DNA of 63,923 nt, counting the filler, from Folioceros fuciformis (Eukaryota), in the NCBI GenBank assembly GCA_049999805.1. It is 18 parts of 18 records of this genome, joined end to end, with 100 filler letters (N's around TTAATTAATTAA, not from the genome) between each part and the next. Parts side by side here need not be neighbours in the genome. Positions count along the whole stretch, not along the records: positions 1 to 7,821 come from JBNGIO010002364.1; 17 more parts are not named here. One strand, 5' to 3'. Of this stretch, positions 1 through 62,752 are shown piece after piece (the first letter of the stretch is position 1; every line of letters starts with the position of its first letter). The notes beneath the pieces were generated by a model. The model saw only the letters and a program-made list of their open reading frames with translations. It made no database searches and was not told the DNA's origin. The position numbers and the translations under genes are program-made.

Positions 1-162
1 CACGTTGAGCTGAACATCACACTTGTCTGGGGCAAAATGGCAGAGGAAGAGGTCGCTGTCAACCCATCCACACCCGCTAAAGACAAGGAAAACATGCAGG
101 GCCTGGTGGATCAGCTAGAAGGTGTAGCAAAGATGCTCAGCAGGCTAAAGGATGAGGTGTAG
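1..162 (+). CDS. 3' end of a possible antisense ORF downstream of copia pol (truncated by window edge)
   Basis: Frame +1 is open from base 1 to TAG at 160-162: HVELNITLVWGKMAEEEVAVNPSTPAKDKENMQGLVDQLEGVAKMLSRLKDEV*, ending in an amphipathic helix. It converges on the pol stop at 383. Confidence 0.35.
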   Translation, partial: HVELNITLVWGKMAEEEVAVNPSTPAKDKENMQGLVDQLEGVAKMLSRLKDEV

Positions 163-382
163 GGTTGTCCAGTCACAGGCTGTCAGGTGATTTAATCAAT
201 CATGTAAGCTTCATCCACCTGCTCCTGTGCTTTGCAGACTGTGTGTAAGAATTCACGGGAACTGATATCGCCTTTAAATGTGTTATGCTGTGCAGTCACA
301 AGTATCTGGCTGCCAGGGATGGAACATATCTGCAGACACAAAAGAGGCTGCCATCCCCATCAACAACCAAGATAAGAGACTG

Positions 383-3300
383 CTACTTGAAGTAGGCTGA
401 GTAGTCCTTCAGTCCCATGCCTTCCATGTGGTAATAGTGCTTATATTTGGGCAATCCTTTAGTAAGGATATCGGCAGTATTCTCATTTGTCTGTACGTAA
501 CCCAATTTAAGGACACCTCTGTGTACCACGTTGCGGATGTAATGGTGTTGTACCTCGATGTGCTTAGTCCTGGCATGAAATTTCGAACTTTCCACTAACT
601 CTAAGGCTGCGGTGTTATCGCAGAGTACAAGTGTTGGCTTCTCCTGCGGCTGCCCCAAGTCATTGAGGAAGCTGCGTTCCCACTCAGCCTCTTTGGCTGC
701 TTCAGTTAGAGATTTATACTCGGCCTTAGAGGAACTTAGAGCAACAGATGCTTGTTTTTTGCAGCTCCATGTGACAGCTGCTGAGCCCAACAAGTAATAG
801 TATGTAGAAAGACTCCTACGTGCATCCGAGTCTGATGCCCAGTCAGCGTCCATGAAGCCTCGTAAGATAAGTTGTTTCTGGCCTGTGCTCTTATACATAA
901 GTCCATAGGTGTGTGTGCCTTTGAGATAACGAAAGATCCTTTTAACAGCTACCCAGTGAACCCTAGCAGGATTTTCTAGAAATTGCGAAACTGTACTAAC
1001 CGCATACTGTATGTCAGGGCGAGTCCAATTTGCGACGAATATCAAGGATCCAACAGCATGCCTGTAAGGTACATCCTGCATGTCCTTTTTCTCAGCTTGT
1101 GATTGGGGGCACTGATCCCTAATCAGCTTTGTACCAGCAGCAAAGGGAGTGAGCTGGCCTGGCCTCGTCAAGGTTGAACTTTCTGAGTATCTCTTTTATG
1201 TACTTATACTGATGGATAAACAGTAGCCCTTCTTTCCTCACACGAAGCAATTGGATTCCTAGATAGAATTTAAGCTCTCCTATGTCCTTCATGTCAAATT
1301 TACTGCTGAGTTTGGCCTTGACACTTGCTAACAGCGTTTGATCGTTTGTGGCAAATATAACATCGTCCACATAAAGTGCCAAGATGACAACAGACGCTCC
1401 TTGTGTGAGCTTATACACATTGCTGTCAGCAGCATTTTGGACGAAGTTGATGCTAATCAGGTACAAGTGCATCGTTATATACCAAACGCACCCACTTTGT
1501 TTTAAACCGTAGATACATTTGAGAAGTTTTAACACCTTGTTCGGGTGCTGTTTGTCCTCATAGGCCTCAGGCTGCAACATGTACAATTCTTCTTCGAGGG
1601 CACCATACAAGAATGCTGTGCAAACGTCCATTTGCTGTAGGTCCAGATCAAATTCGGCAGCATATGCAAAAAGGATTCTTATGGACTGAGTGCGAACGAC
1701 AGGAGAGAAGGTCTCTTGGTAATCGAGACCTTCAACTTGGGTAAACCCGCGAGCCACGAGCCTTGCTTTGTATCTGGCCACTTGTCCTTGTGCATTAAGC
1801 TTAAGTTTAAAAACCCACTTACAGCTGATTGCCTTTCTTCCAGGTGGGAGGTCTGCAAGTACCCAGGTCTGATTTTTGATGTGGGACTGGTACTCGTCCT
1901 CCACTGCAGCCTTCCACTGTGCACTCTGTGGGCCAGTAAAGGCCTGCTGTAAGGTGGTAGGCTCATCTGGAATTTCAGAGCTAGCAGTAGCCAAGGCAAC
2001 AACTTGCACTAGAGAGGTTTTTCGGAAGTCAATGGATTCATATCGGGGCTCTGCCCATTGGTCAGGAGGTGGCCTATGACGTGTAGAACGTCTAAGCACG
2101 GGCTCGTCATCACGGGATTCCTCAATGTCTTGAGGTGCATGAGGTGTGGGTATGTCCCCCTCATAATCTGGGATGGGGACAGCATCCCCCTCATCAACAG
2201 AGAGATCATTAATCTCAAGTACATCATCCAGGTCAAGCTGCACATTCAGGTTGTTGTCATGATCAGCATTATTGACATCAGGGTGTGGCACATCAAGTGC
2301 AACAGGTGGTTGATCATCGGCAGTAGGAGACTCAGCAGACTCATCTGTAAAATCCTCCACTGGGTCAGCAATTTCAGAGTCCATGTCATCAAGGGGGTAA
2401 GTAGAGGCAGCCCCCTCGTTCTCCAGAACATCCAGGTCTAATTTATCAGTCATATACTGATCTGAATGTTCTGCCGTCTCTTGTGAAGCAGGGGCATGGG
2501 GCTCAAGAAAAGTGACACTTCGAGCTAAGATCATAGATCCAGTTTTGGGGTTGTACAACTTATAGGCCTTAGTCCGTTCGCTGTAGCCGACAAAACGTAG
2601 TCCTTGTGCTCGAGGGTCAAGCTTTCGTCTTTTCTCAACAGATATATAGGCAAATGCCCGTGATCCAAAAACACGAAGATGTAGTAGCGATGGTTTCCTG
2701 CGCCAGAAAACTTCATAAGGTGTCTTGTGAGGGACTGAACTTGTCAGGACCCTATTGAGGATATAGGTGGCTGTTACCACAGCCTCCGCCCAGTAACCTT
2801 GAGGTAAACCAGCCCAAATCAGCATGCTTCTTGTCATCCCAAGCAAAGTCTGATTTTTGCGCTCTGACACACCGTTTTGTTGGGGTGTGTAGGGGACCGT
2901 AAGCTGCCTGAGGATCCCATGCTCCTGAAGTAGGCTGTCGAAAGATGAGTTTATGAACTCCGTGCCATTGTCAGTCCTTAGAGTTTTGACCAGCATTCCA
3001 GATTGCCTTTGTGCAGTTTGAAGCCAGTCCTTGAAAAACTCAAAGGTTTCATTTTTCAGGCGCATAGGAAAGGTCCATGTATACCTGCTGTAGTCGTCTG
3101 TCAATGTGAAAAAATATTGGGATCCACCCAGTGATGGGGAATGGATCTTTCCTGATATGTCAGCATGGACTAACTCAAGCACTTGTGTGGCTCTTTGTGC
3201 AGGTGCATTAGGGAAAGGTGATTCTTTCTGCTTAGCTAATATGCACGACTCGCATAGAGGTAAGTTTTTGAAACATTTGGGCAGGGGTTCTCTATGGCAT

Positions 3301-4841
3301 TCAGTTATAGACATATCTATCAATTTTCGTCTATTCACGTGACCTAATCTCGCATGCCACAAGACTGCTACCTGCTCAAGTCTAAGTGAGGATACACCAG
3401 TGGAATGTACAGCATGCTGACCGGCTGTATGTTGTGAACAGGTTATGTCCAAGCGGTAAAGGGAATTGTCAAGAATCCCCTTAAAGACACATCTACTAGG
3501 AGATGTACTTCTATAGAATAAGCAGTGCTTAGAATCTGCATACATGGTGAAGGTACATAAACGCATGAGCTGACTCATGGACATGAGATTTTTAGCCATG
3601 CTGGGTACGAAGAGAACATCTTCGAGTGTGAGGTCTGTGTTATCTTTCAATTTGAAAACACACGTGCCTCTGCCTTCAATATGCAGACTAGTCCTAGACT
3701 GCTCATCACCAAGGAGAACCTTTTCATGGACATGAACAAGGCTGAGGGAAGTGAACAACTCCCTCTTTTTGCAGATGTGCATGGTAGCCCCGGAGTCGAG
3801 GAACCAGCTCTCATCATCATGTGTCGAACTTGACAAGCATATGGTGAGAATTTTCACTGGTGCCTTTTCGACAGGTTTGTCCTTCACTGCAACACTTGCA
3901 GCAGGTTTAGCCTGCTTCTGGGGCTCACCAGCTTTGCGTTTTCGGCACTCGCGTGCCCAATGGCCAGGTATGCCACACCAATTGCATGTGCCTGGTCGTT
4001 TTGAGCTTGAGGGTTCAGGCCTGTCCTTGGTTTGTGCTGAATTTCCCCCTCTGAATTTGCCCTTTCCTTTGGGGCGAAAATTCATAGCTAATGCCCTTTC
4101 GGCTTTGGATTGTTTGTGTAAGCCTGCCGAAGTCAAGCGGGTTTGCTCCTCTTGGTAGAGGGCTCCGATTACGTCTTCCATGGTGATGGCTGCAGCCTGT
4201 GTCCCTCTTGCAGCAGCTGCTGCAACAGGGCCATTCTGGTAACTGGTGACAAAAGATTGGTAAGAGGGTGGCAGGCTCGTGAGCAGCTGGGAGACAGCCT
4301 CAGACTCCGTCATCTGTGTTTTCGTGATGGACTGAATCTGAGCTCGAAGATGACGAAATTTGCTGGTATGTGCAGCCATTTTGTCACCTTCTTTCATCCG
4401 CAATGTGTAGAACTCCATACGGACAGCGGACAATGTTGCCATTGTGGTTGTGTGGTAGGTCTTTTCAAGCTGATTCCAAATTTCTTCAGCCAATGTGAGG
4501 AATTCAACGTTGGGAATCAAAATTGCATCAAGCCCATTAACAATGACTGCCATAGCCACTCCATTATTATGCTCCCACTTAGCATACTCATCAGGTTTGG
4601 CTACTGGGTCAGGTTTCTTAAAAGTACCATCGACACTCGACCAGACACCACGTGCTGTGAGGATGGTTTTCATCCGTACTCGCCAGATAGAGTAACCAGT
4701 ACCTCTAAACCTATCCTTGTCCTTGACATCTGAACTAAAGGAAACTGACTGTTGTGTTGCCATGTTTCTGATAGGTGCAGGCTGCAAACTAAGGTTGCTA
4801 AAGCTATTGATTAGCGCATTCAGCTGTGAGGTTGTGGTCAT
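383..4841 (-). CDS. Gag-Pol polyprotein with one frameshift near 1150
   Basis: Zn knuckle CNWCGIPGHWAREC, protease WFLDSGA, integrase WHARLGH/CESC/LVHAD/RTDNGTE/QQNGVSER, RT YKARLVARGF/QMDVCTAF/LYVDD, RNase H DADWA/CDN/RTKHIE. ORFs 1119..4877 and 383..1171 join at EARPA/TPFAAG. First ATG at 4841. Confidence 0.95.
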
Positions 4842-5187
4842 AAGGCACCTATGAGCATCAAAAGCTATGGTTTTCAAAAAAATGCTGGACCCTGCTCATG
4901 CTGAGCTCCTCAGCATACCACTCATGTTTGCCGTGAACAGACTTATGAAACCCTAAAAAATTAAAAAATGTTTCATGTTCAAAAGGCATGGACAACGCTT
5001 CATGTTCACAAACCCTAACTGCCCTTAATTGCCGTGTCATGGTGGTGTGAAATGACAGGTTAGCTGCACCAATCAAAAGAGCTACATGCGAGAATCTGCA
5101 GGGGATGCAAGGAAAGAGGCACCGCTTCAAATCTGGGCAGGGTTGGACCCTGCCACTCTCGCTCCGCTCCTGGGCAGCGGAAGTAGG

Positions 5188-5895
5188 TCATAAGGTGATG
5201 CAATCAGGCCCTGAATGGGGGCATCCTGATTCAAGATCCTTCAACTTTGTATTCATCTGCTTCAGGAAATCAGCTACATCATCGATGTCTCTCTCAATTT
5301 CCAGCGTACAGTTAGAAATTTCTCTCTCTTTTGCAGAATCCTGACTCGGAACTCTGCTCTTGAGCAACTCCTGGTTTTCAATGGTGTGTAGCAACAGTTG
5401 TTCTACTCTGGCAAGGAGATCCTCTTTGCATGCATCAGCAAATTGCCTCCTTGGTCCAGTACAATTGCCACAACTGCTGGTATTCACAGATTGTGCTGCA
5501 AAACGTTGCACCCCAGTAGGTATAGCCTCCCGTCTATGATTTGTGTGGTCAAGGTGAGGCCTAAAAAGGAAATCTGGTGGAGCAGATGCTTCTGGCCTTG
5601 GGACAAAGAATAGATCGGGGTTTTGTCCTCTCCTAAAACAGCGTTGTCGATAAAGGCGATCAACCTCTCGATTCCTGTTTAAGGGATGCGTTCGTGATGC
5701 TCCGGGCCTACTGTTAAGTGCAGCAAATCGTTGCAGCCAAAGGGCAGGGTAGTCGTATTCGTGGAGGTCCAGCGCCGAGTCAAGATCAACTTGTAGTGGC
5801 GCTATACGTCTTGGTGGGTTGGTATCTTGTCGTCGACGTTGTCTAGGAAACCCACCACGACGCGAACCTCTATGCGAGCCACCCTGCCTCGGCAT
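5188..5895 (-). CDS. Extra 5' ORF (ORF0) of copia element 1, 235 aa, unknown function
   Basis: Uninterrupted ATG-to-stop ORF starting about 30 nt after the PBS, same strand as gag-pol. Arg/Gly-rich N-terminus, CGNC, heptad-rich C-terminus. Confidence 0.7.
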   Translation of the reverse strand: MPRQGGSHRGSRRGGFPRQRRRQDTNPPRRIAPLQVDLDSALDLHEYDYPALWLQRFAALNSRPGASRTHPLNRNREVDRLYRQRCFRRGQNPDLFFVPRPEASAPPDFLFRPHLDHTNHRREAIPTGVQRFAAQSVNTSSCGNCTGPRRQFADACKEDLLARVEQLLLHTIENQELLKSRVPSQDSAKEREISNCTLEIERDIDDVADFLKQMNTKLKDLESGCPHSGPDCITL

Positions 5896-5925
5896 CTTCC
5901 AGGAATTGTGTTAGGAGACAGAGCA

Positions 5926-5939
5926 TGGCTCTGATACCA
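5926..5939 (-). promoter_or_regulatory. Primer binding site for tRNA-iMet 3' end
   Basis: Minus strand TGGTATCAGAGCCA, 2 nt after the LTR end. Confidence 0.95.
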
Positions 5940-5941
5940 TA

Positions 5942-6112
5942 TGTAAGATGAGCGTGAGCGAGAATTGGAATAATAATAATAATAATCCATAATGGCAATA
6001 CAAAAATGTTTAAATACTTTCTAGATGTCCTTTCACTAGACAACCCCTAATTATATATAAACTATATATATATCCCTAACCGTGGGTTAAGTTTAACCAT
6101 TCTGCGCTAACA
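5942..6112 (-). repeat. 5' LTR of element 1 (about 171 bp)
   Basis: Minus strand TGTTAG...CTTACA, AT-rich with TATA-like tracts, abuts the PBS. The outer boundary coincides with resumption of the pogo transposase frame. Confidence 0.75.
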
Positions 6113-6719
6113 AAGCTTAGCATTATTAACATCTAAGGATATGACAGGAATTGCTGATGTTGGATATCCAACAATGACATCTGAAGAGTATCTAAACTTT
6201 GAGGAGGATGAAGGATTGGAGACTACGTATATTCCTATAGAGGACGAAATATGGCAAGCATTAATCCCTCCGCGTGTCAATGAGGAGGGTGAGGAAAATG
6301 ATACAGCGTCAGTGGAGACCATAGCGCCAAGATTGCGTATGACAAAGGATGCTGTAGATAATGCTATGAGGATAGCGAAAATGTTTTTGGAAGAGATGCC
6401 ATATAATGCTTTGAAGTTGCATTCTCCGTTGGAAAAACATATTGCTAGTCATTGGATGAAAGCAACTTGTCATCAATCAAGGATTGATGATTATTTTAAC
6501 CCGACAACTAGAATTAGGTTGGCAGCTATGTAGTATGAGAGAGCATTTTGTATTTTTTGGAAACTTTTAAGCTCTTTCGAATTTTTGATTAAAAGGATTT
6601 TATTTTATTTTTTTAATATTTTTATTTTCACAAAAAGATGAAAATGCCTAAACAGGAACCCCTCTAGATGGGAGGATTTTTGCTACTCCCAATTGTTCCC
6701 AATTAGAGGAGTTTGACTG
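6113..6719 (+). mobile_element. Right end of a pogo/Tigger-like DNA transposon (transposase C-terminus plus TIR), interrupted by copia element 1
   Basis: Acidic C-terminal ORF ending QSRIDDYF (PIP-box-like, typical of pogo transposases), stop at 6533. Terminus reads CAGTCAAACTCCTCTAATT on the minus strand, flanked by TA (6720-6721). Confidence 0.75.
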
Positions 6720-7821
6720 TAGATTGTTCTCGCGAGTGCCTTGTCATGCCATTAGCTCCCCACTACTGGTCGAGATGGGGTGAGATGGGTTGTCCTCTTC
6801 AAGTCAAGTAGGCTAACTTTGCGGGGAAGGCAAGGCAAGGGAGCATTCAAGATGTACCTATTATATTATCTAAGTGGCATTCCATATATATGAGTGTCAT
6901 GAACTAGCCATGAATTACATCCCTTCTCTCTCTTCAATAAAAATGCACACTACCCTTAGTCGTTTGCTGCAACACCTCAACCATTGGCTTTTGCGGATGG
7001 GTAGCTAGCCATGGCTTCTTTCTCTTTAAAGAGTCTCCACCCTATACATCATTGACAACCGTGGCACACTCACCTTTTCTTGTATGCTACATTTGAACTT
7101 GGAGAAGAAATATACATGATCTTTTAGCAAAGAAAATCAACATTTGTCACTCTTCTTTCAATATATTTTACAAGCTTTGATAAGAAACATGTGCAAACTT
7201 CAAATGTTGTGTGCTCAATAACCCACTTGGTAGGTCTTGCATCGTATTCTATCTTAGACAAACCTAGGCAATTGCACTCGCAATGTGTATCTCATATGGC
7301 ATACTAAAGAGAATAGAGGGACATGATGGAGTCTATAGGAATGCTGTAGCTTATGTGGGTAATATGTCTGATAGGAGCTGATATATTGATGGATGGAGTT
7401 CCAACGCATTTGTCTTTTATCTCAACTGCCTGTAATTTTTATAAGAGAAATTACATATGGCTATTGCATCAATGGTAAAGTTCACAACAATATGCTTACT
7501 GCGATTACCGTCCTCAAAACCATTTTCATTAAAATCATTTCTTAATGCTCTTAATCGCCAACTGGGACTTCCCTCGCAATAAGGAAGTGTACAGTCATCA
7601 ACTTCAATTTTAGGCACATCTATATAACATGGTTGTGTTAATACAATAATTATACAACATGAGGTTCCTTACAATAACTTGACTTACCTCCATGCAAGGG
7701 CCTCTTGGCCATAATGATGGTATTAAGTGAAGCTACCGAAGGTTGCCTCCTCTTATTTTTTCTTTTAATCAAGCTTCTTAAGAGTTTCTTCCGGTGTTTT
7801 CCATATGACTGAGCATTTTTC

Positions 7822-7921
7822 NNNNNNNNNNNNNNNNNNNNNNNNNNNNNNNNNNNNNNNNNNNNTTAATTAATTAANNNNNNNNNNNNNNNNNNNNNNN
7901 NNNNNNNNNNNNNNNNNNNNN
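7822..7921. other. Artificial contig spacer (first of 17)
   Basis: N44-TTAATTAATTAA-N44 six-frame stop linker. Others start at 14107, 18295, 24193, 27799, 29341, 31463, 33740, 38611, 41636, 44424, 46696, 49853, 54150, 57015, 59745, 62753. Confidence 0.99.
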
Positions 7922-9343
7922 ATGTAGATCATGAGATGATTACCTTAACATTAGGTGATTCGTGTTGCTCAAGTTGGATGCGACAGCCTTTTGAATTGAA
8001 CACAATCTCATTTCTTGGGTCAGTAATTCTAGCTATAGAAAGAAGATTTTTGGCAAGACTAAGTACAAGGTGTACATCCTTTATAGTATCTTTGGACTCT
8101 TCACCAGGTAGTTTTACCTTCATGACATCTTTCCCTTTGATCTCGTGTGATGTGTTGTTACCAAGTATCACCTTATGCCCTGTCGACATTTCTTTGTAGT
8201 TTGAGATCTAAGGTTGGTTGTAGGTAAACTGTTGAGATGCTCCAAAGTCTAGGTATAGACTCTCATTCTCCCTTGATGAGCGATCTCTAACTGCTTTTAT
8301 TGTTGAAGCAGAAAAAAGTTTTTCTTCCCACTCACTTGCTTGATTGGCTTGTGATTGTTTTCCCTTAATCAAGTTAGTCAATCTTGTCCTAGAGTCTTTT
8401 GCAGAGTGGTTAGGTTTCTTATAATAATGGCAAGTACCCCATGTCTTATTTTCTTTGCAACTTTCTCCTTCGATCCTTCACTAGAGTTGTCATGTGGGGT
8501 CTTCCCTTGTGACTTTCCTTTCCTTGAAAAAAGTACCGAGTCACCTTTATGTTCATTCTTGAATGAATTCACCAGTTCCTCTTGAAGAAGCAACTCAACC
8601 ACCTCTTCGATCGTCGCTTGTTTATCACTTGAATGCATCGTTGTCGATATCCTGAAAGACAACACAAATTGCGTGTACGCAGATGGTAAATTATTAAATA
8701 ACACCACAATAATCTTTCCTTCGAAAGGTTTGATGTTTGCAGCTTGCATTTTATCAACCAAGTTCTTCAACTTGTTGACATGTTGTTGAATCGTATCCTC
8801 TTTAACCACCTTGAAGTTGGGCAGTTGTTGCTCCAACAACATCTCACTCAACATACTTCTTTTTTCATACATACGATAAAGGGTAGTCCATGCCTTTTTT
8901 GTTGTTGCACACTCACTTAATTGAGAGAGTATGTCATCAAACATATTAAGAAAGATTGTGGCTAATGTTCGTCCATCCTTATCAAAGTTTGGTGGGTGTG
9001 TCTTCGAGGCCCTTGTCGACGAATTTCCATACTCCCCTCTCAACAAAAAGCATCTTCATCTTCAACTTCCTTAGTGTGAAGGTCGTGCCTCCAAGCTTCT
9101 CCACCGAGCTTGTCTCTATAAAACGTGTCTCCATGTTTGTTGATGCCATCTATTTTATCCTCTCGAATTTCAACATATTATTATCTTAGACACTATCTAT
9201 TCTATAGTAATAACATTACCTAAATTAGAAGCAAAATGTTTTTACCATTCTTTGATATGATGCAGATATGATATAAATATTTAACTATTAATTTAGAACC
9301 ATTGCTCTTTTGATGTGTTGTCATAAACCACTCATTTCTAACA
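7922..9343 (-). mobile_element. Degenerate copia 5' part (LTR about 9184-9343, gag, protease)
   Basis: Gag-like AWTTLYRMYE...IQQHVNKL...LPSAY, protease-region LAKNLLSI, with stops and frameshifts. LTR-like TGTTAGA...TCTAAGA. Confidence 0.75.
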
Positions 9344-10228: not shown

Positions 10229-11218
10229 ATGTGTGAAGCTGTGACGACGCTGGACAAAGCTGGGAAACCTTGGCGGCTGGCGCGACAGTCTCTCCGCATG
10301 GATGCCGTGTTGAAACCGGCCGTGCTCTGCGTGCCGAGCGCGGAGCTATGGCGGAAATGTGTGAAGAGCTGCGTCGCCGTGTCGCACCATTCTGCGCAGG
10401 CGGCGAAGCAGGGCTCGAGGTGGCTGCCCGTTGAGAAGGGCAGCTGCGTGGTGAGGCGGGGAGGATTGCTGCTGGGGAGAGTGCAGAATTACTCCACGGC
10501 GGAGGCGGCGCTGGACACCGGGAACACGGGTAGGTTTTGCAGCTGGCCGCGCTAGGTTTTGCTTCACGCTGGTGGATTTGCGTTCCTTGCATGGTGGGAT
10601 ACAGCCGCACCATGAATGTTTGTGTTTTGCAGATGTGGAGAGTCCGAAGCTAGGGCAGGAGCCGGGTCAGGTGAAGCCTCCTGGTATGTGTGGTTTTGTG
10701 TGGTGACGTGTCTGTGCCGAGGTTGGACAATGTGATTTAGGGGTTCCTGGATTGCAGAGAGCAAGGCGGAGAGCCTGTGGAGGGTGTTTTTCAATGATCC
10801 GAGTCGGTGGTGGGACGATAGGAGTAAGAAGGTCTGTGTCTCGTGAAACCCTGGGCTGGGAGTGGTGAGAGATTCGTTGGTTTGGATGATGTTTTGGTTT
10901 GCTGAGAGCACGGAGGTGTTTGTTGTTGTGCCTTGCAGCGGTCACCGCAGGATCCGGATTTCCAGAAGAAGGGGACGAAGGAGCCGCTGTGGATTGACCA
11001 TCCCTCGACGCCGGCTTGGGTGAAGGGGGAGTTGGAGGCTTTGCAACAGAAAAGGGAACAGGAAAGGAGACCGCCAGGGCGTTATGGTGGAGGAGGGCCT
11101 GGTGGACCGCCGGGAACCGGGAACGTCTTGGGAAGAAACTTGATAGGCAATGGGAATATCTTGGGGAGGAACATGGGTGGGGTAGATAGAGAGAAACTTT
11201 TTGGGAAGAACTTTGCGG

Positions 11219-11254
<36 letters not shown>

Positions 11255-11967
11255 AGTATGAGAAGAAGGTGGACGCCGACGACAATAATGCAGACGCTGT
11301 CGAGAAGAAACTCGAGGTCGTCCAGAAGAAAGTGGTGGAGGACGATGAGGAGGAAGACGACGAGTGGATCGATGATGGGGATGACCTCATGGCCCGGTTG
11401 AGAAGGAAAGAGAAGCAGGCCGTGAAAGAGAAGACAGCGGATAAGGGTGGATCTGTGAACCATACTTTGGACCCGGACCATAAGTCGGATTTGGAGGAGG
11501 CGGTGGATGCTTTGGAAAATGAGGTGAGGGACCTCAGAAAACGGCAGAAAGAAAAGGAGAGGGAAGAGAAGATAGCGAGAGGAGAGATTGATCCAGAAGA
11601 TGAGAATGAAAAGGCTGAAAAGGCAGCCAAGGCAGCGGCTCCAATAGTGAGGACCCGGGGGAAGGCCGATGGTTATATGAGGAGGTACCCTCGCCACAGC
11701 AGGCAAGCGATGTTGGACGATGAAGGAGGAGACGGGGACTACAACCCAGCTGCATACCACAGTGAGAAATTGGCCATTGCATATGCGCTCATGAAATCGC
11801 CTGAGGGCCACACTATCCGCATTGTGAAGAACCTGAGGGTATGTATAGATTGCCATGAGTTCACCAAGGCTGTAACTCTGGTTACGGGAAGGGAGATCAT
11901 CGCCAGGGACAACACACGTTTCCATCATTTCAAGGACGGCAAGTGCTCCTGCAACGACTATTGGTAG
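10229..11967 (+). CDS. PDF-motif (OSB-like ssDNA-binding) plus DYW deaminase fusion protein; exons 10229-10529, 10633-10683, 10758-10831, 10939-11967; about 484 aa
   Basis: Three GT-AG introns (phases 1,1,0) keep the frame. The exon 3/4 junction gives [47 protein letters not shown] (OSB PDF motif). C-terminus HSEKLAIAY...[10 protein letters not shown]...[23 protein letters not shown]. Alternative ATG at 10298. N-terminus looks like a targeting peptide (inference). Confidence 0.85.
11219..11252 (+). repeat. A34 homopolymer inside exon 4 (poly-Lys)
   Basis: 34 consecutive A; the reading frame is preserved as assembled. Confidence 0.9.
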
Positions 11968-13898
11968 CCTACCCATGCTGGCTCGGAATGGGTGCTTCCC
12001 ACTCGTGATTGGGCCCCTCTGACACACAAAACAGGGCGTTCCTGGTATGACCTTAGCTTTTTCTTGTTGTTTGAGGAGGAAATCTCAGCTTTAGCTTTGA
12101 GTCTCAGTTTAAACCTAACTATAGAACTGCAGTATCGATGGGGAACACGATGTCAGCAGGAGTGGTTTGGTAAACTTCTTGCTGGTAAATGACATCCATA
12201 TGTTGCCTTGCCTACCGCGTGGGATGCACTGAATGTTCAGTTCATTTTCGAAGGAACACGGGCGGGAAGCCACACGGTCGATCCAAGTCGCGTCGTGTTT
12301 GTGCTGTACTTATAACTGATAATAATCAATTGGCAGGACGACATAATGTAGTAAACTATCTGGCCTCACGCCCCGAACCGAAAAAAGAAATTTTTGCATG
12401 TCCGGCCCATCCCGCGTGCATTTGTTCGTCCATTTCTACAGCAACAGGAAGCTCCCAGGAGACCCAAGCAGGTTACACGACTGGGCTCTTACTCTCAGTA
12501 TTCAAAGATTCTCTTGTGTAGGTTATGTCCTGAGGGTAGATTGTGAGTAGTAGACAATTCAGGAGAAACTTGTTCCGTCGCTGGAAGATTCATGTTCCCC
12601 TTTTTCTGAACATTGCGAACCCCCGTGGGACCTTTCGGCTTCTGCGTCGTCTAGACGTACCTTTCCTCGAATTGCAACGAGCCATGAGTTGGAAAGCAAA
12701 AGGAGCAACTCCCAGTAAAGAGCCCAGTCCAGCTGCAATAAACACGGACCAGTCCATCGCGACAAATGAAATGCCGCATACAGGCTGGCAAGTGCGTTCT
12801 GGGCGCATCATGCAGGTGGACTGAAGACCGGTTGGGAGCAGATACACACCCAATGGGGACGAGGCACGCTTGAATGAGCTAGAACATACAATGAATCTGA
12901 GCCGATGCGTGACGGCCAGTCCGTGAGGTCTGCCGCACACTGGACTGACAGACTGACTCGAATTGCGCGTTATCCGTACTCAAATCGCGACCCGTTTGTT
13001 TCACTTGTGCGACAACATATTAAAATCACTGACTTCGACCTCGGCTATGACTTATGGTACATTGCACAGGGTACAGCCCTGGATATTCCCTAAAATACAA
13101 CACTAGAATACAGACTCAAAGGCGGCTGCACTTCCTTCCTACTCCCCTAACTCCCAAGGGATCTTTGAAGCCCGCACAGAAAAACCCCTACTACCCTCGT
13201 ACTTCTGCCTTGTTTGCTATATGTTATCAATCCGAAACTGGATTCCTCGACTCTCCAGCCAATGATCGGCATGAAAGATACATGTTGTCACTTCTGCTGG
13301 TGAGCAATCTATGCGTGGAAGTCAGGGGAAGGAAGTATCAAGAGCCATCAGGTAGGGAACACTTCCACGACAATTTCCCTGCAGACCAGGGATGGATTCG
13401 GTTTAGGATCCGAGATGCAGGAACCCATGATCCTTGACCTTCGTGTTCGGAGATGACTCACTGTCACAGCGGCACATCTTGCCTCAGCCGGGTCCTGCCC
13501 TTGGTAGAACCTTGTTTGAGCAACCGGATCTGTATCCGGCTTTGTGTCAGAGTGTCCAGGACAAAAATCACTCCTTGTCTGTGGCGCCACGAGGTCTTCG
13601 CTCCCTCCTTGCAAGGATGGTCTTTTACTCCCTGCATGCCTGCATCCTGCCATGCGGACTCCGGTTCCATGCTCCCCTGCCTCTCCATTGCCCAGCAAAC
13701 TTCACGCGGACTCCCCCCCTGGAGCACTGCCAGACCGTCACAGAGCAAATATCTCGAGTCCGAGCACAGCTCCACAGAGAAATCCCCAGGCAGACGCAGC
13801 GTAGACGAGGATTATGTCGAGGCCATGGTACATGTATCGGATATGGGTTCAGACACCTCGTCCCCCAGATGAGGAGCCCCAAACCCTTCCAGTCTGCG

Positions 13899-14106: not shown

Positions 14107-14206
14107 NNNNNNNNNNNNNNNNNNNNNNNNNNNNNNNNNNNNNNNNNNNNTTAATTAATTAANNNNNNNNNNNNNNNNNNNNNNNNNNNNNNNNNNNNNN
14201 NNNNNN

Positions 14207-49474: not shown

Positions 49475-50126
49475 GCATATAAATCTTCGGGGAGGAAGAA
49501 GGGTAAAAAAAAAAAAAGTCATCAAATTATCCCTCTTTTGCTTCACAAGTGTGAACCTCCAAAGTTTGGAGTAGAAGTTTGTTTTGGTTGAAAAAGAGTT
49601 AATAGTAGTTCCCTTTTCTACTTATTTTCCCTAATTTTTCTTTATTTTCTGGTCATTTTTCCTATTTTTCTTTGTGCTAATTAGGTTAATTGGCTAAGAA
49701 ATAGTCGGTTTTGTTATAAGAGTGGGTATAGGTTTGGTCTTAGACCTGGGAAGGTTTAGGTCCGGTACCAAACCATAGGGTCGGGAAAGGTTGTGTCTAG
49801 GTCTGGTGATTAGTTTAATATTTATTAAAGATGTATAATATTAAATGATTAANNNNNNNNNNNNNNNNNNNNNNNNNNNNNNNNNNNNNNNNNNNNTTAA
49901 TTAATTAANNNNNNNNNNNNNNNNNNNNNNNNNNNNNNNNNNNNNNNNNNNNGAGCCCTCGAATCCATCATCGAGTTCATCAAGTCCGACCCTCCACCCG
50001 CAGCAGCAAGGAACCCCATCGCTCCTTCGTGGGAACGAAACCCAATGTCTCAAACGACAGTGGGATAAGTGTGGCCACTAAAGGTGGGACCCTTCGGCAA
50101 TCAGTGCCCGGGGTTTTGCCTCCACA

Positions 50127-52517
50127 CTGATCCTCAGACAGATGAGCATATGCTGTTGCACCAAATATTCTGAGATGATTGATTCTCGGCTTATGGTTTG
50201 TCCAGCGCTCATATGGAGTTGCTCCTGTGAACACACTGGTAGGAACTCTGTTCCTGATGTACACTGCCGTACATACTGCTTTAGCCCAGTATCCTCTCGG
50301 AAGTCGTGCTTGCTGGAGCATTGCTTTTGCTGATTCCTGTGTATGCCGATTGGAAATTTCAGCTATGGGATTTTGTGTTGACGTGTATGGAGTCGTCAGC
50401 TGTCTGGCTATGCCTTGTCTCTTGCAAAAGCTGGTGAAGGCATCTGAGATGTACTCGCCTCCGTTATCACTTCTCAAGACTTTCAGCAGCTGACCTGTTT
50501 GTCTCTGTGCAAACATAACAAACTCCATGAAACAATCCAGAGTTTGACCCTTCTGTTTGATGGGATACACTACCGTGTATCGGCTCCAGTCATCTATGAA
50601 TGACAGAAAATATCTGGCTCCACCAAGTGACATTGTGGACATAGGTCCACATATATCTGAGTGTACTAGCTCCAAGAGCTTGGTAGCACGTGTTGGATTA
50701 CTGTCTTTGTATGGAGCTCGGTGGTGTTTGCCAAACACGCACGCCTCGCAGAAAGGCTTCTCCGCAGGCTTCATCAAGAACCTTTCCCGGTAAAGTGTTT
50801 CACTGTTGACCATCATATTCAATTTGTCAAAGTTAGTATGTCCCAATCGCGCATGCCACAGCCTGGCATCCTGCTCATCCTTCTGTGCCTGTGTCAGGTT
50901 CGCCAATGGTCTCCCATGCCCATACTGAATATCTAGCTTGTACAGATTGTGTTCTGGTGTCCCAATTGCAAAAACTTCTGATTTGTTTGCCTGGTCAACA
51001 ATATGGCACTGACCATTTTCACACATGGTGCTCAATTTATGCTGTACGTCTAACAGGTAAACTGACACCAAATTCTTGACCAAGGTTGGTACATGCAGAA
51101 CCTCTAGCAAGATTTCAACTCTACCAGTTGTGTTTTGGACAGGAACTTTGCCTATTCCTTTAATTGGCAGACCTCGGTCGTCACCAAGGAGCACAACCTG
51201 ACCATTTGGGACCTTTCTGTACTCAGAGAATGCTGATCTAGTATGGCAAATATGTGACGACGCACCTGAATCGAGGTACCATGCATGTCTGTATTGTGGT
51301 GTGGACACCATATATACTGCTAGAACTGTGCTAGGCTTTCTAGATGCCATGTTGGCTTCAGGTGGAACTGTACGGCGAGGCTCACCCGCCTTCTTTTTCC
51401 TGCACTCCGCCTCCCAATGGCCTGGGATCAGGCACCAGTTGCAAGAGCCCTTTTTCTTGTTAGCAGATGATGTTGGGCGGCGCTTGAAACTCCCACTGCC
51501 ACCAGCATTCTGGTTCTGTGATCCCTGTCGTGGTGGCTGCCTTTTTGAGCCTCTATTCGAAAAGAGAACTCGATTTGAGGACTCTCCTCTGGAGGAGGTA
51601 CCACCCTTGCTTGCTATCCTCGTGGATTCTTCCTCCAGGAGGGCTCCAATCAGGTCTGAGAGGGAAACTGCAGGTGTCTGGCCTGCTGGTGTGGCCTGGG
51701 CCACATTCCGCATATGTGTGCAGTGATTGCTCACAAAGACTCGATAGCTATCAGGCAGGGATAGGAGAAGGGCCACAGCAGCCTGCATCTCAGTGGTTGC
51801 AGTCCCACTTGAGGTAAGCTTAGACCTCAACATTCTGAACTTGATGACGTGTTGCTCCACTGACTCGTGCTCTTTCATCTTACAGTTGTAGAAGGCACGA
51901 GTTGCACTCACCATTGATGATCCATTCGACACTCTGTAAATTTGGTTCAGGGAGTCCCAAACATCCTTTGTTGTGTCAGCATCTTGAGTATGGTGCATCA
52001 TTGACCCGTCGAGAGCTGACTGAATGATGCCCAAGGCTCGAAGATTTGATTTTGCCCAAGCGGCTATATCAGCCTGGGCTGCTCCTTGCGGAGGCTTGGG
52101 CACTGTGCCAGTCACGATGCCCCATAGGTCGTGCTCTCTCAAGATGGTCTGTAATCTGAGAGCCCAGATGTCAAACTGGGTGCCATTGAACCTATCTCTC
52201 TCCTTAAAGTCTATTTTCACATTTGTGACTGTGGTTGTATTGTTTGTGACAGTCTGCGGTGGCAGATTTGCCATGTTTCCAATAGCTTGATGTGAAAGGG
52301 CTGATCCTGCTTGTGCTACAGCATACGCCTGAGCTAGCTGCGCAACGGATACAGCATGCAAGCTTGTGCTTGACTGTGAGGAGGCAGTCTCCTGATTTAG
52401 GCCAAGTGGGTCAACTAGGTAAGGATCTGGATTTGTATTTCCACCCCTTCCTGTATCACGACCTCTACGCCTGCCTCTTGGGTTTCTGATACCCCTACCA
52501 TGGTTGCTATTGGACAT
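50127..52517 (-). CDS. Gag-protease-integrase of element 2 (open, truncated)
   Basis: CNWCLIPGHWEAEC, WYLDSGAS, WHARLGH, VHSDICGP, RSDNGGEY. Confidence 0.95.
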
Positions 52518-52626: not shown

Positions 52627-53100
52627 TTAGGCCTGGTTGTTATGCAGATTTGTGAAAATAGGTACCCTGGTTAGCAATTCGATCTGCTGTGTGAGGGTCA
52701 CTATCTGTCTATGGGAGTTTATGACCCTGTCTGTCAAGTCACACACCTGTTGCCTATGCCTCTCTGATTCTGACCTGAAACTTGTGTATAACTGCTGAAG
52801 GGAAAGGTCAGGCTTGGGAGGATATGTGTTTGCACAAATTTTGCAGGTGGGGATTTCGTTTGCTTTCTGTGCACTAATTGCAAGTGCTCGATTTATCTCC
52901 TTGCGAATTTGATTCCTAAGACTCGCTAAGGGATCTGGCTGTACAGGTTTCTGAAAAAGACTGCTCTGCCTTTGTGATGCAGACCTGGAAGACAAATTAA
53001 AAAGGTGTTGAAGATTTTTATGTTGCTCTTCTACACTATGTCCAGGACTGCATGCAAACGAATCTAGGGGTATTTTACCCTTCCCACGTGCTCTCGGCAT
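52627..53100 (-). CDS. Extra 5' ORF (ORF0) of element 2, 157 aa
   Basis: Intact ORF between PBS and gag: MPRARGKGK start, CKIC, C-terminal heptad repeats. Confidence 0.65.
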   Translation of the reverse strand: MPRARGKGKIPLDSFACSPGHSVEEQHKNLQHLFNLSSRSASQRQSSLFQKPVQPDPLASLRNQIRKEINRALAISAQKANEIPTCKICANTYPPKPDLSLQQLYTSFRSESERHRQQVCDLTDRVINSHRQIVTLTQQIELLTRVPIFTNLHNNQA

Positions 53101-53396: not shown

Positions 53397-53410
53397 TGGC
53401 TCTGATACCA
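53397..53410 (-). promoter_or_regulatory. PBS for tRNA-iMet 3' end
   Basis: TGGTATCAGAGCCA directly after the LTR CA. Confidence 0.95.
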
Positions 53411-53671: not shown

Positions 53672-54149
53672 TATCTTGTTCTCATACAAAGCCTCTAATT
53701 TCAGCCAAGCCTCTCTTGCTCATTTGCAAGTGGTCACATGCATCAATTGTGCATCTTCTAAGTTGAAACAAATATTTGCAAAGGCCTTGCCTGCAAGCTC
53801 ATCCCACTTGGGTTGTCTCTCCACTTCATTTGGATGCTCCTCGGTCCTCGACACAATTCCCCAAAGGCCTTTTTCAGCCAACAACATTTGCATCTTGAAC
53901 TTCCACAAGTTGAAGTTGTCACCTCCAAACTTTGAGATAACTTGTAGAGTGACGGTCCCTTGGGTGTGTGGGCCCATAACCTGTTGAGATGTCACCCTCG
54001 CCATGCTCAAAAGAGGTTAAAACAAGGTAGTTGAAGCAAGATGCAGAATCCCAAAAATAAGAGCACTATAACAAGGCTCTTAAACTTAAATAAAAGGAGA
54101 ATTACAAAAACAACACAATACAAGTGAAGAGGGAGTTAGACTACAAATA
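53672..54149 (-). mobile_element. Copia element with family E 5' LTR (53982-54149), half-tRNA PBS and gag start; host of element 2
   Basis: KFGGDNFNLWKFKMQMLL...AWLKLEALYENK, interrupted by the element 2 LTR. Confidence 0.85.
53968..53981 (-). promoter_or_regulatory. PBS complementary to the tRNA-iMet anticodon arm (half-tRNA primer)
   Basis: GGTTATGGGCCCAC immediately after LTR end CTCAACA; complementary to GTGGGCCCATAACC of the tRNA at 36003-36074. Confidence 0.9.
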
Positions 54150-60432: not shown

Positions 60433-62752
60433 TGTGGGGTTAAAATATGGTACCCGGGGGTACTGCGAGGTCCACACAAAGACCTCTATGTCGTTGTAGC
60501 TTTGGGATTTGATCCCAAGGGAATGATTTGTGTTAAACTACACGGGTTAGCTTCTAAAGTCAATTAGCACCTAAAGCTCGACTGACCCACGCACACACGT
60601 CCAGTGCTCGGACCTTACTAAGCCCCCTTACTTCCCCACCGGACGACCCCTCAACCACCCGGTTGCCCCAGGGGCTACCTCCTCCTAGACTACCCTTGGT
60701 TGCCCACCGGGCTACCTCCGTTGCCTTTCGGGCGACGGTCGCCTGACGGTGTACCGCTTGTGGGTCCCACTCTCTCTCTCACTCAATTCCCCCTCTCTAG
60801 GATTTTCTCTTCGACAAGGTCGTTCCTACCCGACTGATTACCTCCTGCCCGCGCATCCTCTTTGGCGCTTCCCTTCCTTAGATACGCCCCCGGCGGTCTC
60901 CATTCAGCTTCGCATCCTATTCTAGCCTGCATTTACTGTCGCCGTTTTCCATGCCGCGGGCGGCTTCCTCCTGGCCTTCGCGTGTCACCCCTTACTATTC
61001 CTCCTCTCGCTCTTCTACCCCTCCGTTGGTCCAGTAGATCCTCCCAGAGGATCTCCACATCACTGCTGCTGCTTCTGGACCTAGCTGGTGGCGCAGGTGG
61101 GTCCCGCCGCTGTGGTCCACCACCCCTCCTCCTTCTCTGGTTGCTGAGGACAGCCACAAGCCCCCGTTCTACCCAGCGCTAGGCCTCCTCTTCCGTCAGT
61201 TCCTCCAGAACTGCCTCTGCATAGCAGTGGGGCAGTCCTGTCACCCACCATCTGTAGTGGTAGAGTCCCAGGCGCGTCCTCAGCTGTAGGACGTAGCCCC
61301 GCGTCCCTCCTGTGCCCATACGTACATACAGAAACAGCTTTAGAACTCTGGCCCCTTCTACATACAGGCCTGGCGCATAGGAGGCCTCCTCCTCACACTG
61401 TAGCACAATCCGACCTTCTGTCATAACAGAGGTGCTTACCCCGTCCTCCCTTGGGCTACCTCGGGTTGCCTGCTCCCCCTCCTGCTGAGGTACCTGAAGG
61501 TTCTCTGCCTGCCCAGCTGTTGCCTCCTCCGGCTCTATCCTCCTGGTACGAGTCACCCTCCTGGAGCGCCGAGGGGCAGGCGCCCCTACTGCTTCCTCCT
61601 TCGTTTCCAGGGTTGGTTCTTCCGCTATCCTGGGCCTTGCTGGACCACCGGTAGCCTCGTCGGCTACCCGACTACCGGTAGTCCCCTTAACTACCGTTCC
61701 CCTGGTTCGGCTACCGGTAGCCCCTTCTGCTACTGGGGGCATCAACTGACTTAGGCACCTAGCCTTGCTCTTCCCCTTCACTCTCTCTCTGGCCTCATCC
61801 CGCTCCCGCTTGTATCTGTCAGCCAACTTCTGAGCCTGCTCCACAGCGGCTATCTCCATCTCCTGTGCCCTAGCCATTTCTTGTTGCATCTCCAGGTTAG
61901 TCTCGTGAGCCGCCCTCACCTAAGCTAGTAGGGTCCCCTGTTGCTCTTTCAGTGCCTGCACTTCAGCCCTCGCCTCGCGCGCCTTTTCCTCGGCTTGAGC
62001 CTTCTCCCTGTCCAGGACCCGCTGCTTCTCCTCCATCAGTTGTCGCGCCATCTCCGACTCCGCCAATTGCTTCCTTGCTTCAGCCTCTCGCTCACGAGCC
62101 TTCTCCTCCTTTCCCCAAGCCTCGGTCTCTCGCTCCGCTTGTACACTTAACCAGGTCAGGGCCCTAGCAGCCTGATCCAGGAGGTCTGCTTGGGCCTGCA
62201 CCATCGCAGCAGTCAGCCCGGGTAGGTCCACCTCGTGCACCCCTCCAGTGCCCATTCCTCTCGCCGTGATTTGTCTGCCCAGGAATTCTCGCAACTTGTC
62301 CAGGTCCCCCACCTGCAACCTGTCTCTCTGAGGCCTGCACCTGAAAATGTCCTTCCACCTTGAGGAACCCTCCTGTGCTGAAGCGTGCCCTAACTTATCC
62401 TCCTGTCTGGAGGAAACTGTGTCGGCTGCCATCACCTGATCCGGTGGCTCCTTGGGTCTTGTCCCACCCTGACCTTGCTCCTCCAACCTTCAGTTCTTGA
62501 TTCCCTGGACAGTTGGTTCTCGTTCTGCCTCCTACTGACCTGTCTGCTCCAGGGCTGTCCCCCCTTCCTCCTAATCAGCCCCCATGCTCACACTTTGTCC
62601 TCTGATCCTTTTCCTCTTGGTAGGAGTCTTCTTTTGTGGGGCCATCCTCTTCCTGGGCTTGACTGGGGTTTCCTCCTGCGAGCTATTCCCACTGTCAGCT
62701 TCCCAACTGCTGGAGGCAGCCCTTGCTGGCTCAGCGGGCTTCCACTTCACAT
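60433..62752 (-). mobile_element. Family B-related element end with long decayed extra ORF (62752 to 60933)
   Basis: Terminus homologous to 22202 and 30696. ORFs 61920..62486, 61179..61919 and 60933..61157 are one frame broken by single TAG stops. Confidence 0.75.

Follow-up and report, generated by a model that had tools for sequence, protein, structure and literature searches.

A candidate accessory open reading frame between the primer-binding site and gag of a Ty1/copia-type retrotransposon from Folioceros fuciformis

The window analysed here, 63,923 nucleotides of Folioceros fuciformis DNA (GCA_049999805.1), consists of 18 contigs of 2-8 kb joined end to end. Its first contig (1..7821) carries on the minus strand a plant-type Ty1/copia long terminal repeat (LTR) retrotransposon with an additional open reading frame (ORF), termed ORF-A below, between primer-binding site (PBS) and gag. 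We consider that ORF-A is probably a genuine, lineage-specific accessory gene ('ORF0') in the leader of this element. Judged from its sequence, it would belong to the known class of LTR-retrotransposon accessory ORFs, in a place that is unusual for copia and outside every named ORF family; at present it is a lead rather than a result. The 17 spacers between the contigs (7822-7921, 14107-14206, etc.) are each made of 44 N, the 12-letter all-frame stop linker TTAATTAATTAA and another 44 N, so that features separated by a spacer are not genomic neighbours.

A sequence-only reading of the window had described an intact ORF of 235 amino acids (aa) starting about 30 nt after the PBS of a copia element, with an Arg/Gly-rich N terminus, a CGNC motif and a long heptad-rich helix. 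Most of this description was borne out. The ORF is intact and lies on the minus strand, which the earlier reading did not name; its ATG follows the PBS after 32 nt with an A at position -3, and the frame comprises 235 codons from the ATG or 240 from stop to stop (coordinates of all features are collected in Table 1). It is located upstream of gag-pol on the same strand, in a frame other than that of gag, and is separate from the polyprotein. The translation begins MPRQGGSHRGSRRGG, and its first 32 residues, with 10 Arg and a net charge of +9, are strongly basic; the sequence YPALWL is found at residue 49 and CGNC at residues 142-145. The middle of the protein is Pro/Arg-rich and predicted at low confidence, and the tail is acidic and helical. 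A single-sequence AlphaFold2 model placed helices at residues 148-181 and 187-223, again at low confidence, and a crude in-house heptad score peaked at residues 191-218, a peak equalled by 4 of 1000 shuffles. The claim of a long heptad-rich helix thus stands in part, for one heptad-like stretch of about 30 residues.

The assignment of the host element follows from its polyprotein. The order of Pfam domains in the 1240-aa gag-pol ORF is of the copia type, namely Retrotran_gag_2 (residues 57-237, E = 9.3e-30), zf-CCHC (285-301), Pol_BBD, gag_pre-integrs, rve (553-653, E = 6.3e-13), SH3_retrovirus and RVT_2 (990-1229, E = 1e-70). The integrase precedes the reverse transcriptase and the gag is copia-type, the combination that identifies a Ty1/copia polyprotein. 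The PBS, TGGTATCAGAGC, which we take to pair with the 3' terminus of initiator tRNA-Met, occurs as an exact motif twice in the window, where 0.39 matches would be expected when up to one mismatch is allowed. Most copia groups are described as priming with complete tRNA-Met (PMC6317226). The PBS and the domain order together support the assignment to a copia element with a sense ORF between PBS and gag.

We compared the length and composition of ORF-A with those of shuffled sequences, using dinucleotide shuffles of the 1099-nt leader for the open-run test. The longest open run in these shuffles averaged about 110 codons, and a run of 240 codons was reached in 7 of 2000 and in 4 of 3000 of them. 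Base composition by codon position in ORF-A gave a chi2 of 26.7, equalled by 4 of 2000 shuffles, and periodicity was detected in both parts of the ORF (residues 1-80, 26/2000 shuffles; residues 81-235, 41/2000). Pieces of equal size from gag and from the reverse transcriptase gave chi2 values of 33.5 and 38.1, as against 3.9 and 4.9 for two open, junk-looking ORFs elsewhere in the window. When a codon-usage score was trained on 11 copia ORFs of the window, ORF-A had log-odds of +0.117 bits per codon in frame versus -0.098 and -0.344 out of frame. The in-frame value falls short of the 11 training ORFs, which range from +0.13 to +0.34, and exceeds the +0.01 to +0.03 of the junk ORFs; the C-terminal half (residues 118-235) reached +0.171. 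Tandem Repeats Finder detected no tandem repeats inside ORF-A, and two short arrays outside it (4954-4969 and 5969-5986). ORF-A lies beyond chance expectation and is most likely neither a random open frame nor a piece of gag.

A phmmer search with ORF-A against 1.84 billion representative proteins returned three matches at E <= 0.001, two of which are repetitive proteins aligned over short stretches only. The third, P0001, is a protein of 134 aa encoded on a 1170-bp contig of an unrelated public assembly, and it matches residues 1-88 of ORF-A with an E value of 9.6e-9. In the BLASTP alignment 40 of 89 positions are identical (45%), the start Met residues are aligned, the five gaps all comprise whole codons, and the block around YPALWL is nearly identical. 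None of 1000 shuffles reached the score of ORF-A residues 1-76 against P0001 residues 1-80 (z = 25). These comparisons show that an N-terminal module of about 76 residues, start codon included, is conserved in one distant relative. A profile built from the two sequences retrieved P0001 alone, a word-indexed protein search with ORF-A found no match, and neither did scans of metagenome and viral contigs with profiles (of ORF-A and gag in the case of the metagenome). Within the window, no second copy was found by tblastn of ORF-A or blastn of 1..6600. A control search with the gag of the same element returned one protein at E <= 1e-10, P0004, with 64% identity. The databases barely cover this lineage, therefore the scarcity of ORF-A relatives says little.

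Several results nevertheless weigh against a working protein-coding gene, and we set them out here together with the sequence copies and the second element that also bear on the question. Conservation is limited to the first ~76 residues of ORF-A, and the last ~55 residues of P0001 have no match in the rest of ORF-A, in the open extension downstream of it or in the other frames; a frameshifted continuation of P0001 was considered and rejected, the best match in other frames having an E value of only 0.6. A Pfam search with ORF-A gave nothing at E <= 0.1, and a threshold of E <= 10 adds only two helix-type matches near E 0.1; Athila ORF-1 (PF03078), the plant mobile domain (PF10536) and Transposase_28 (PF04195) are not among its Pfam matches. 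A PDB sequence search with ORF-A gave no match, the ESM Atlas gave no usable match for either ORF-A or the extension, and the Atlas 'recognition' value of ORF-A (1359) is within the range of shuffled sequences. The mean predicted local distance difference test (pLDDT) score of the AlphaFold2 model is low (44.9), and the N-terminal half of the ORF has a codon score of 0.063 in frame versus 0.064 in the +1 frame.

DNA contigs from two sequencing runs of one sample carry the ORF-A stretch almost unchanged. One contig per run spans 3901 to ~5950, a single one reaching from 3901 to 5958, with seven substitutions and two length differences, which amount to a net gain of 2 letters within 3901-5934. 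A run of a second study contains a 154-nt piece of ORF-A with no differences, and in one presumed RNA run the alignments were confined to short fragments of related copia genes and of the flank. Substitutions were classified for 24 of 40 entries, from 1256 in all (21 in gag-pol and three in the ORF-A frame). Among the entries listed, the sole substitution within ORF-A changes a residue (L34P), as do 15 of the 21 in gag-pol; because the differences are mostly residue-changing in gag-pol too, the run copies say nothing about selection, and they differ by neutral decay. In 31 of the 40 entries the change is A>G or T>C, the window copy having A/T and the run contigs G/C, a bias that is expected if the window copy decayed by C-to-T changes. 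A relative that is ~84% identical in gag (4057-4739) is unaligned upstream of 4739 at 80% likeness, although another 1359 nt of its contig follow. The leader of this relative is thus different or too diverged, and ORF-A is not recognisably shared with it.

The copy numbers relate to the idea that this one copy captured ORF-A, by transduction or nested insertion, as a piece of some host gene or other mobile element. Captured ORFs are described as usually occurring in a single copy or in a few (PMC7264820), and ORF-A is represented by one contig per run, its summed depth of 32-40 (run X1) corresponding to a single contig, compared with 100-400 over pol, where the depth is higher because related copia families align there too. 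However, P0001, which has the same start, is the only relative of ORF-A among the 1.84 billion representatives, none being otherwise host- or transposon-like; no Pfam family is matched, and ORF-A begins just 32 nt behind the PBS, in surroundings free of repeats and insertion boundaries. We see scarcely any chance that capture is the explanation.

The only other exact PBS match in the window belongs to a second copia element, and this element also carries a leader ORF, of 157 aa, between PBS and gag. The ORF starts MPRARGKGK (MPR followed by a basic stretch), contains a CxxC motif (CKIC) at residue 86 and has a tail that looks helical by eye. Its 160 open codons were reached by 14 of 2000 shuffles. 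Two further points fall on the unfavourable side, namely that its periodicity is weak (182/2000 shuffles) and that it shows no similarity to ORF-A (z = -1.4), for which reason homology between the two was rejected. Both window elements with an exact PBS therefore have a leader ORF though their gag-integrase regions are only 37% identical, which hints that leader ORFs recur in the copia elements of this organism; common descent is not implied. Upstream of the short LTR of the second element, the stretch 53720-54005 (minus strand) reads by eye as the start of a copia gag (...FNLWKFKMQ...), and the second element may be nested in a third.

The part of ORF-A that is shared with P0001 coincides with the most structured RNA of the leader. 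The 286-nt segment 5660-5945 gave a folding z score of -3.51, with 1 of 200 shuffles as good (z = -3.89 in a separate in-house scan), and the other six leader segments, down to 4802, ranged from -0.19 to -1.55. RNA constraint could thus explain part of the conservation, and the protein-level conservation of ORF-A appears thin and confounded by RNA structure. Rfam at gathering thresholds had no match in 1..7821. It is conceivable, if unlikely, that ORF-A is not a working gene and that the PBS-proximal leader has been kept because its structured RNA works in cis, in primer annealing, dimerisation or packaging, with the frame as a relic or by-product. Such a reading would account for a fold excess that covers exactly the P0001-shared part, for the lack of conservation past residue ~76, for the missing family, fold and Atlas matches, and for an N-terminal codon score no better than that of the +1 frame. 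It fits poorly with the rarity of the 240-codon open run (4/3000 shuffles) and with the periodicity of the non-conserved residues 81-235 and the positive codon score of the C-terminal half. Moreover, an RNA-only constraint would not predict that at 45% identity the start Met is common and the gaps consist of whole codons. We therefore continue to regard an accessory gene as the better description of ORF-A, even where its N-terminal codons overlap structured RNA.

How far such a gene extends is a separate question, as the frame stays open beyond the TGA for 109 Cys/His-rich codons. These end 17 nt short of the first gag-frame ATG, at a distance of 95 nt from the likely gag start. A stretch of 350 codons with a single stop occurred in 0 of 3000 leader shuffles. 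The gene might accordingly have 345 codons (5895..4861) and nearly fill the leader, the TGA at 5190..5188 being a nonsense mutation of the family or a leaky stop; we rate this as a possibility, albeit a somewhat unlikely one. Codon periodicity is absent from the extension (chi2 5.6, equalled by 913/2000 shuffles), which, as in the Atlas, has no match among the families. A read-through signal behind the TGA was looked for and rejected, since the two hairpins present there fold no better than shuffles (z = -1.14, 27/200). No difference at 5188-5190 occurs among the 40 of 1256 entries, and the run contigs probably share the stop, while the two length differences of the covering contig could alter frames. 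AlphaFold2 modelling of the read-through form, with X at the stop, gave a pLDDT of 40.5. The coding signal ends at the TGA, and ORF-A may be a shortened form of a longer gene.

At the other end of the leader, the true start of gag is likely Met27 of the long ORF, at 4763, because the similarity to P0004 begins at residue 21 and both proteins have a Met just after. This boundary enters into a further alternative, in which the conserved ~77 codons would be a first exon, joined in frame to gag by splicing and giving Gag an Arg-rich N-terminal extension. An AG/GT stands directly after codon 77 (GT at 5664..5663), where the similarity to P0001 ends, and ...TTTGCAG directly before gag codon 21 (AG at 4783..4782), where the similarity to P0004 begins, with both junctions in phase 0. 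In addition, the Gag of the second element (52200-52517, minus strand) opens with ~100 contiguously encoded extra residues that precede the conserved gag domain and are Arg/Gly-rich over the first 30. On the other hand, an intron would leave 158 further open, periodic codons unexplained, the gag boundary is more simply a conserved start Met a few codons on, and AG/GT and CAG are frequent by chance. The N terminus of ORF-A was also compared with the extension of the second Gag as a possible homologue, and the likeness is not significant (z = 1.9, 104/2000). We find splicing to gag highly improbable and return to ORF-A as a cistron of its own.

Accessory ORFs are described as common in plant LTR retrotransposons and as mostly lacking known domains (PMC7264820, PMC6317226). 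Sense ORFs upstream of gag are reported from the gypsy lineages Ogre (PMC2533021) and Tekay/Retrosat2 (PMC3485330, PMC11728184) and, in insects, from the MDG1 group (bioRxiv 10.1101/2025.03.14.642691). In the survey of Neumann et al. (2019), extra ORFs 250 or more codons long, mostly without known domains, were counted in 582 copia elements and fell into 45 mutually dissimilar groups; a 5'-forward class is defined there, and the 3' ORF of SIRE is the sole copia extra ORF discussed in its main text (PMC6317226). The earlier reading had held that 5' extra ORFs typify Ogre-type gypsy elements and 3' ORFs the SIRE copia elements, which agrees with these sources (PMC2533021, PMC6317226, PMC4093653). 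Its further statement that copia elements normally have gag first holds insofar as a 5' ORF is unusual for copia, but extra copia ORFs as such were already known (PMC6317226). Full-text searches turned up no paper that marks out a copia lineage by a sense ORF between PBS and gag; the supplements of PMC6317226 may list such cases. ORF-A resembles the 5'-forward class in lying upstream, in the same orientation, separate from the polyprotein and outside tandem repeats, but its 235-240 codons fall short of the 250-codon minimum of that class, and 345 are attained only with read-through of the TGA.

By description, the proteins closest to ORF-A in build are the 5' ORF products of Tekay chromoviruses (rice Retrosat2 and sunflower Tekay group 2); no sequence similarity to them was found, though none was compared with ORF-A directly. 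Their ORF likewise lies in sense direction after the 5' LTR/PBS and ahead of gag (PMC11728184, PMC3485330), and they share with ORF-A the lack of a known domain, a basic motif resembling a nuclear localisation signal, few helices, long disorder and very fast divergence between relatives. In sunflower Tekay the ORF is reported to be kept in 500 of 523 family members (PMC11728184). Tekay elements are, however, Ty3/gypsy chromoviruses, whereas the host of ORF-A has the copia domain order. Ogre elements (Tat lineage, Ty3/gypsy) also have a separate sense ORF1 before gag, of 1527 bp in one family (PMC2533021); they differ from the host of ORF-A in superfamily and primer tRNA, and a plant mobile domain (pfam10536) is reported in 57% of them (PMC6317226), in contrast to ORF-A, which has no Pfam match. 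SIRE elements are copia elements with an extra ORF besides the polyprotein, like the host of ORF-A, but theirs is a 3' forward 'env-like' ORF, present in 74% of SIRE elements (PMC6317226, PMC4093653). No ORF of at least 80 aa was found in the 382 nt available after the pol stop, and ORF-A lies 5' of gag. The sORF1 and sORF2 of Drosophila MDG1 belong to an insect Ty3/gypsy group and encode ~70-110 aa, with sORF2 described as resembling a small fusion protein; by eye, ORF-A shows no hydrophobic membrane-type segment.

As to expression, ORF-A would be the first long cistron of the genomic RNA. Eighteen ATGs lie between its start and the likely gag start, where by our own arithmetic ~17.6 are expected. 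With no depletion of ATGs, leaky scanning to gag is unlikely, so that translation of gag-pol would depend on reinitiation, on internal entry of ribosomes, or on an RNA that is shorter or spliced. For the protein itself, the sequence-only reading had suggested an anti-silencing or RNA-trafficking factor; this suggestion drew on composition, and no family, fold or partner was found to sustain it. A more general mechanism can be put forward by analogy with the 5' accessory ORFs of Tekay gypsy elements. The Arg-rich N terminus (10 Arg in 32 residues) may bind nucleic acid or serve in nuclear targeting, self-association may be mediated by the C-terminal heptad helix, and the protein might then serve the element's own RNA in transport, packaging or chaperoning. 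Taken jointly, and granting that ORF-A is a real gene, we offer these steps as a tentative proposal that we would sooner expect to fail than to hold in full.

Table 1. Positions of the features of the two copia elements in the window
Feature	Position	Strand	Basis or remark
ORF-A, 235 aa, TGA stop at 5190..5188	5188..5895	-	start at 5895
First element, first part of gag-pol ORF, 1240 aa (gag, zinc knuckle, protease region, integrase, reverse transcriptase)	1119..4841	-	Pfam
First element, pol continuation in another frame (RNase H region, from the position after RVT_2)	383..1081	-	ORF
First element, probable short 5' LTR, ~170-190 bp	5942..6131	-	3' end ...TTACA fixed by the adjoining PBS
First element, PBS, 12 nt, TGGTATCAGAGC	5928..5939	-	exact motif, 2 nt after ...TTACA of the LTR-like end
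Leader RNA segment with excess predicted structure, covering the PBS and codons 1-78 of ORF-A	5660..5945	-	folding
Open extension of ORF-A, same frame, 109 codons past the TGA, Cys/His-rich, second TGA at 4860..4858	4858..5187	-	ORF
First element, likely position of the true gag start (Met27 of the long ORF), context AAC ATG G (strong)	4761..4763	-	similarity to P0004
Second element, PBS	53399..53410	-	only other exact PBS match in the window
Second element, gag-pol	49980-52517	-	copia
Second element, leader ORF, 157 aa, between PBS and gag	52627..53100	-	ORF

The remaining parts of the first element are less complete. The polyprotein of this copy is broken near 1119..1081, where run contigs vary in length close by, and the pol continuation matches no Pfam family at E <= 0.01. 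After the pol stop, 382 nt remain before the contig edge at position 1; the element runs off the contig there, and its 3' LTR is therefore out of view. No direct repeats of at least 40 nt were found in 1..9000, and no LTR pair was found. The 5' end of the probable 5' LTR is uncertain (TG at 6112 or 6131), and a TATA-like stretch lies inside it at ~6050-6075. In the gag/protease region, two overlapping 286-nt windows at 3515-3943 (minus strand) fold with z scores of -3.2 and -4.1 (60 shuffles each), an excess as strong as that in the PBS-proximal window.

The flank of the first element is of a different kind. The summed depth of run contigs rises from 72 in the bin 5851-6084 to 671 in the bin 6085-6318, and amounts to 500-900 over a repeat with a plus-strand ORF at 6111-6533, compared with 32-45 over the copia element. 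This ORF has 130 aa from its ATG, is strongly coding-like (chi2 46) and matches no Pfam family. As its open frame starts at the expected LTR end, the copia element seems to have been inserted in this high-copy repeat.

Other contigs of the window yielded two further observations. The ORF at 11173-11967 (plus strand) has a low-complexity stretch rich in Lys and Glu, followed at its end by a DYW deaminase domain (E = 9.1e-33). It represents the C terminus of a PPR-type RNA-editing factor, a protein that indicates a land plant, and the long opposite-strand ORF at 10942-11976 is its mirror. Two neighbouring ORFs at 61179-61889 and 61920-62432 (both minus strand; 236 and 170 aa) are Glu/Arg/Ala-rich, have coding-like codon scores of +0.17 and +0.23 and match no Pfam family; they adjoin a copia integrase fragment on another contig than that of ORF-A.

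Accessory ORFs of plant LTR retrotransposons are numerous and fast-diverging, and the well-described 5' sense cases are found in gypsy lineages. A coding-like copia ORF directly behind the PBS would offer a compact case for studying how a cistron upstream of gag is translated, and ORF-A would bear on the coexistence of a protein-coding frame with structured leader RNA, as well as on whether such proteins help the RNA of the element or counter host silencing. It is tempting to go further and to suppose that the copia elements of this plant lineage regularly carry leader ORFs as a trait under selection, and that ORF-A is a small RNA-binding, self-associating first-cistron factor whose gene overlaps the structured packaging RNA and whose product acts on that RNA in cis, in export, packaging or protection from silencing. 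We think it quite unlikely that all of this holds together; if it did, ORF-A would be for copia what the ORF0/ORF1 proteins are for gypsy elements, and its function would correspond to that of retroviral Rev or LINE-1 ORF1p.

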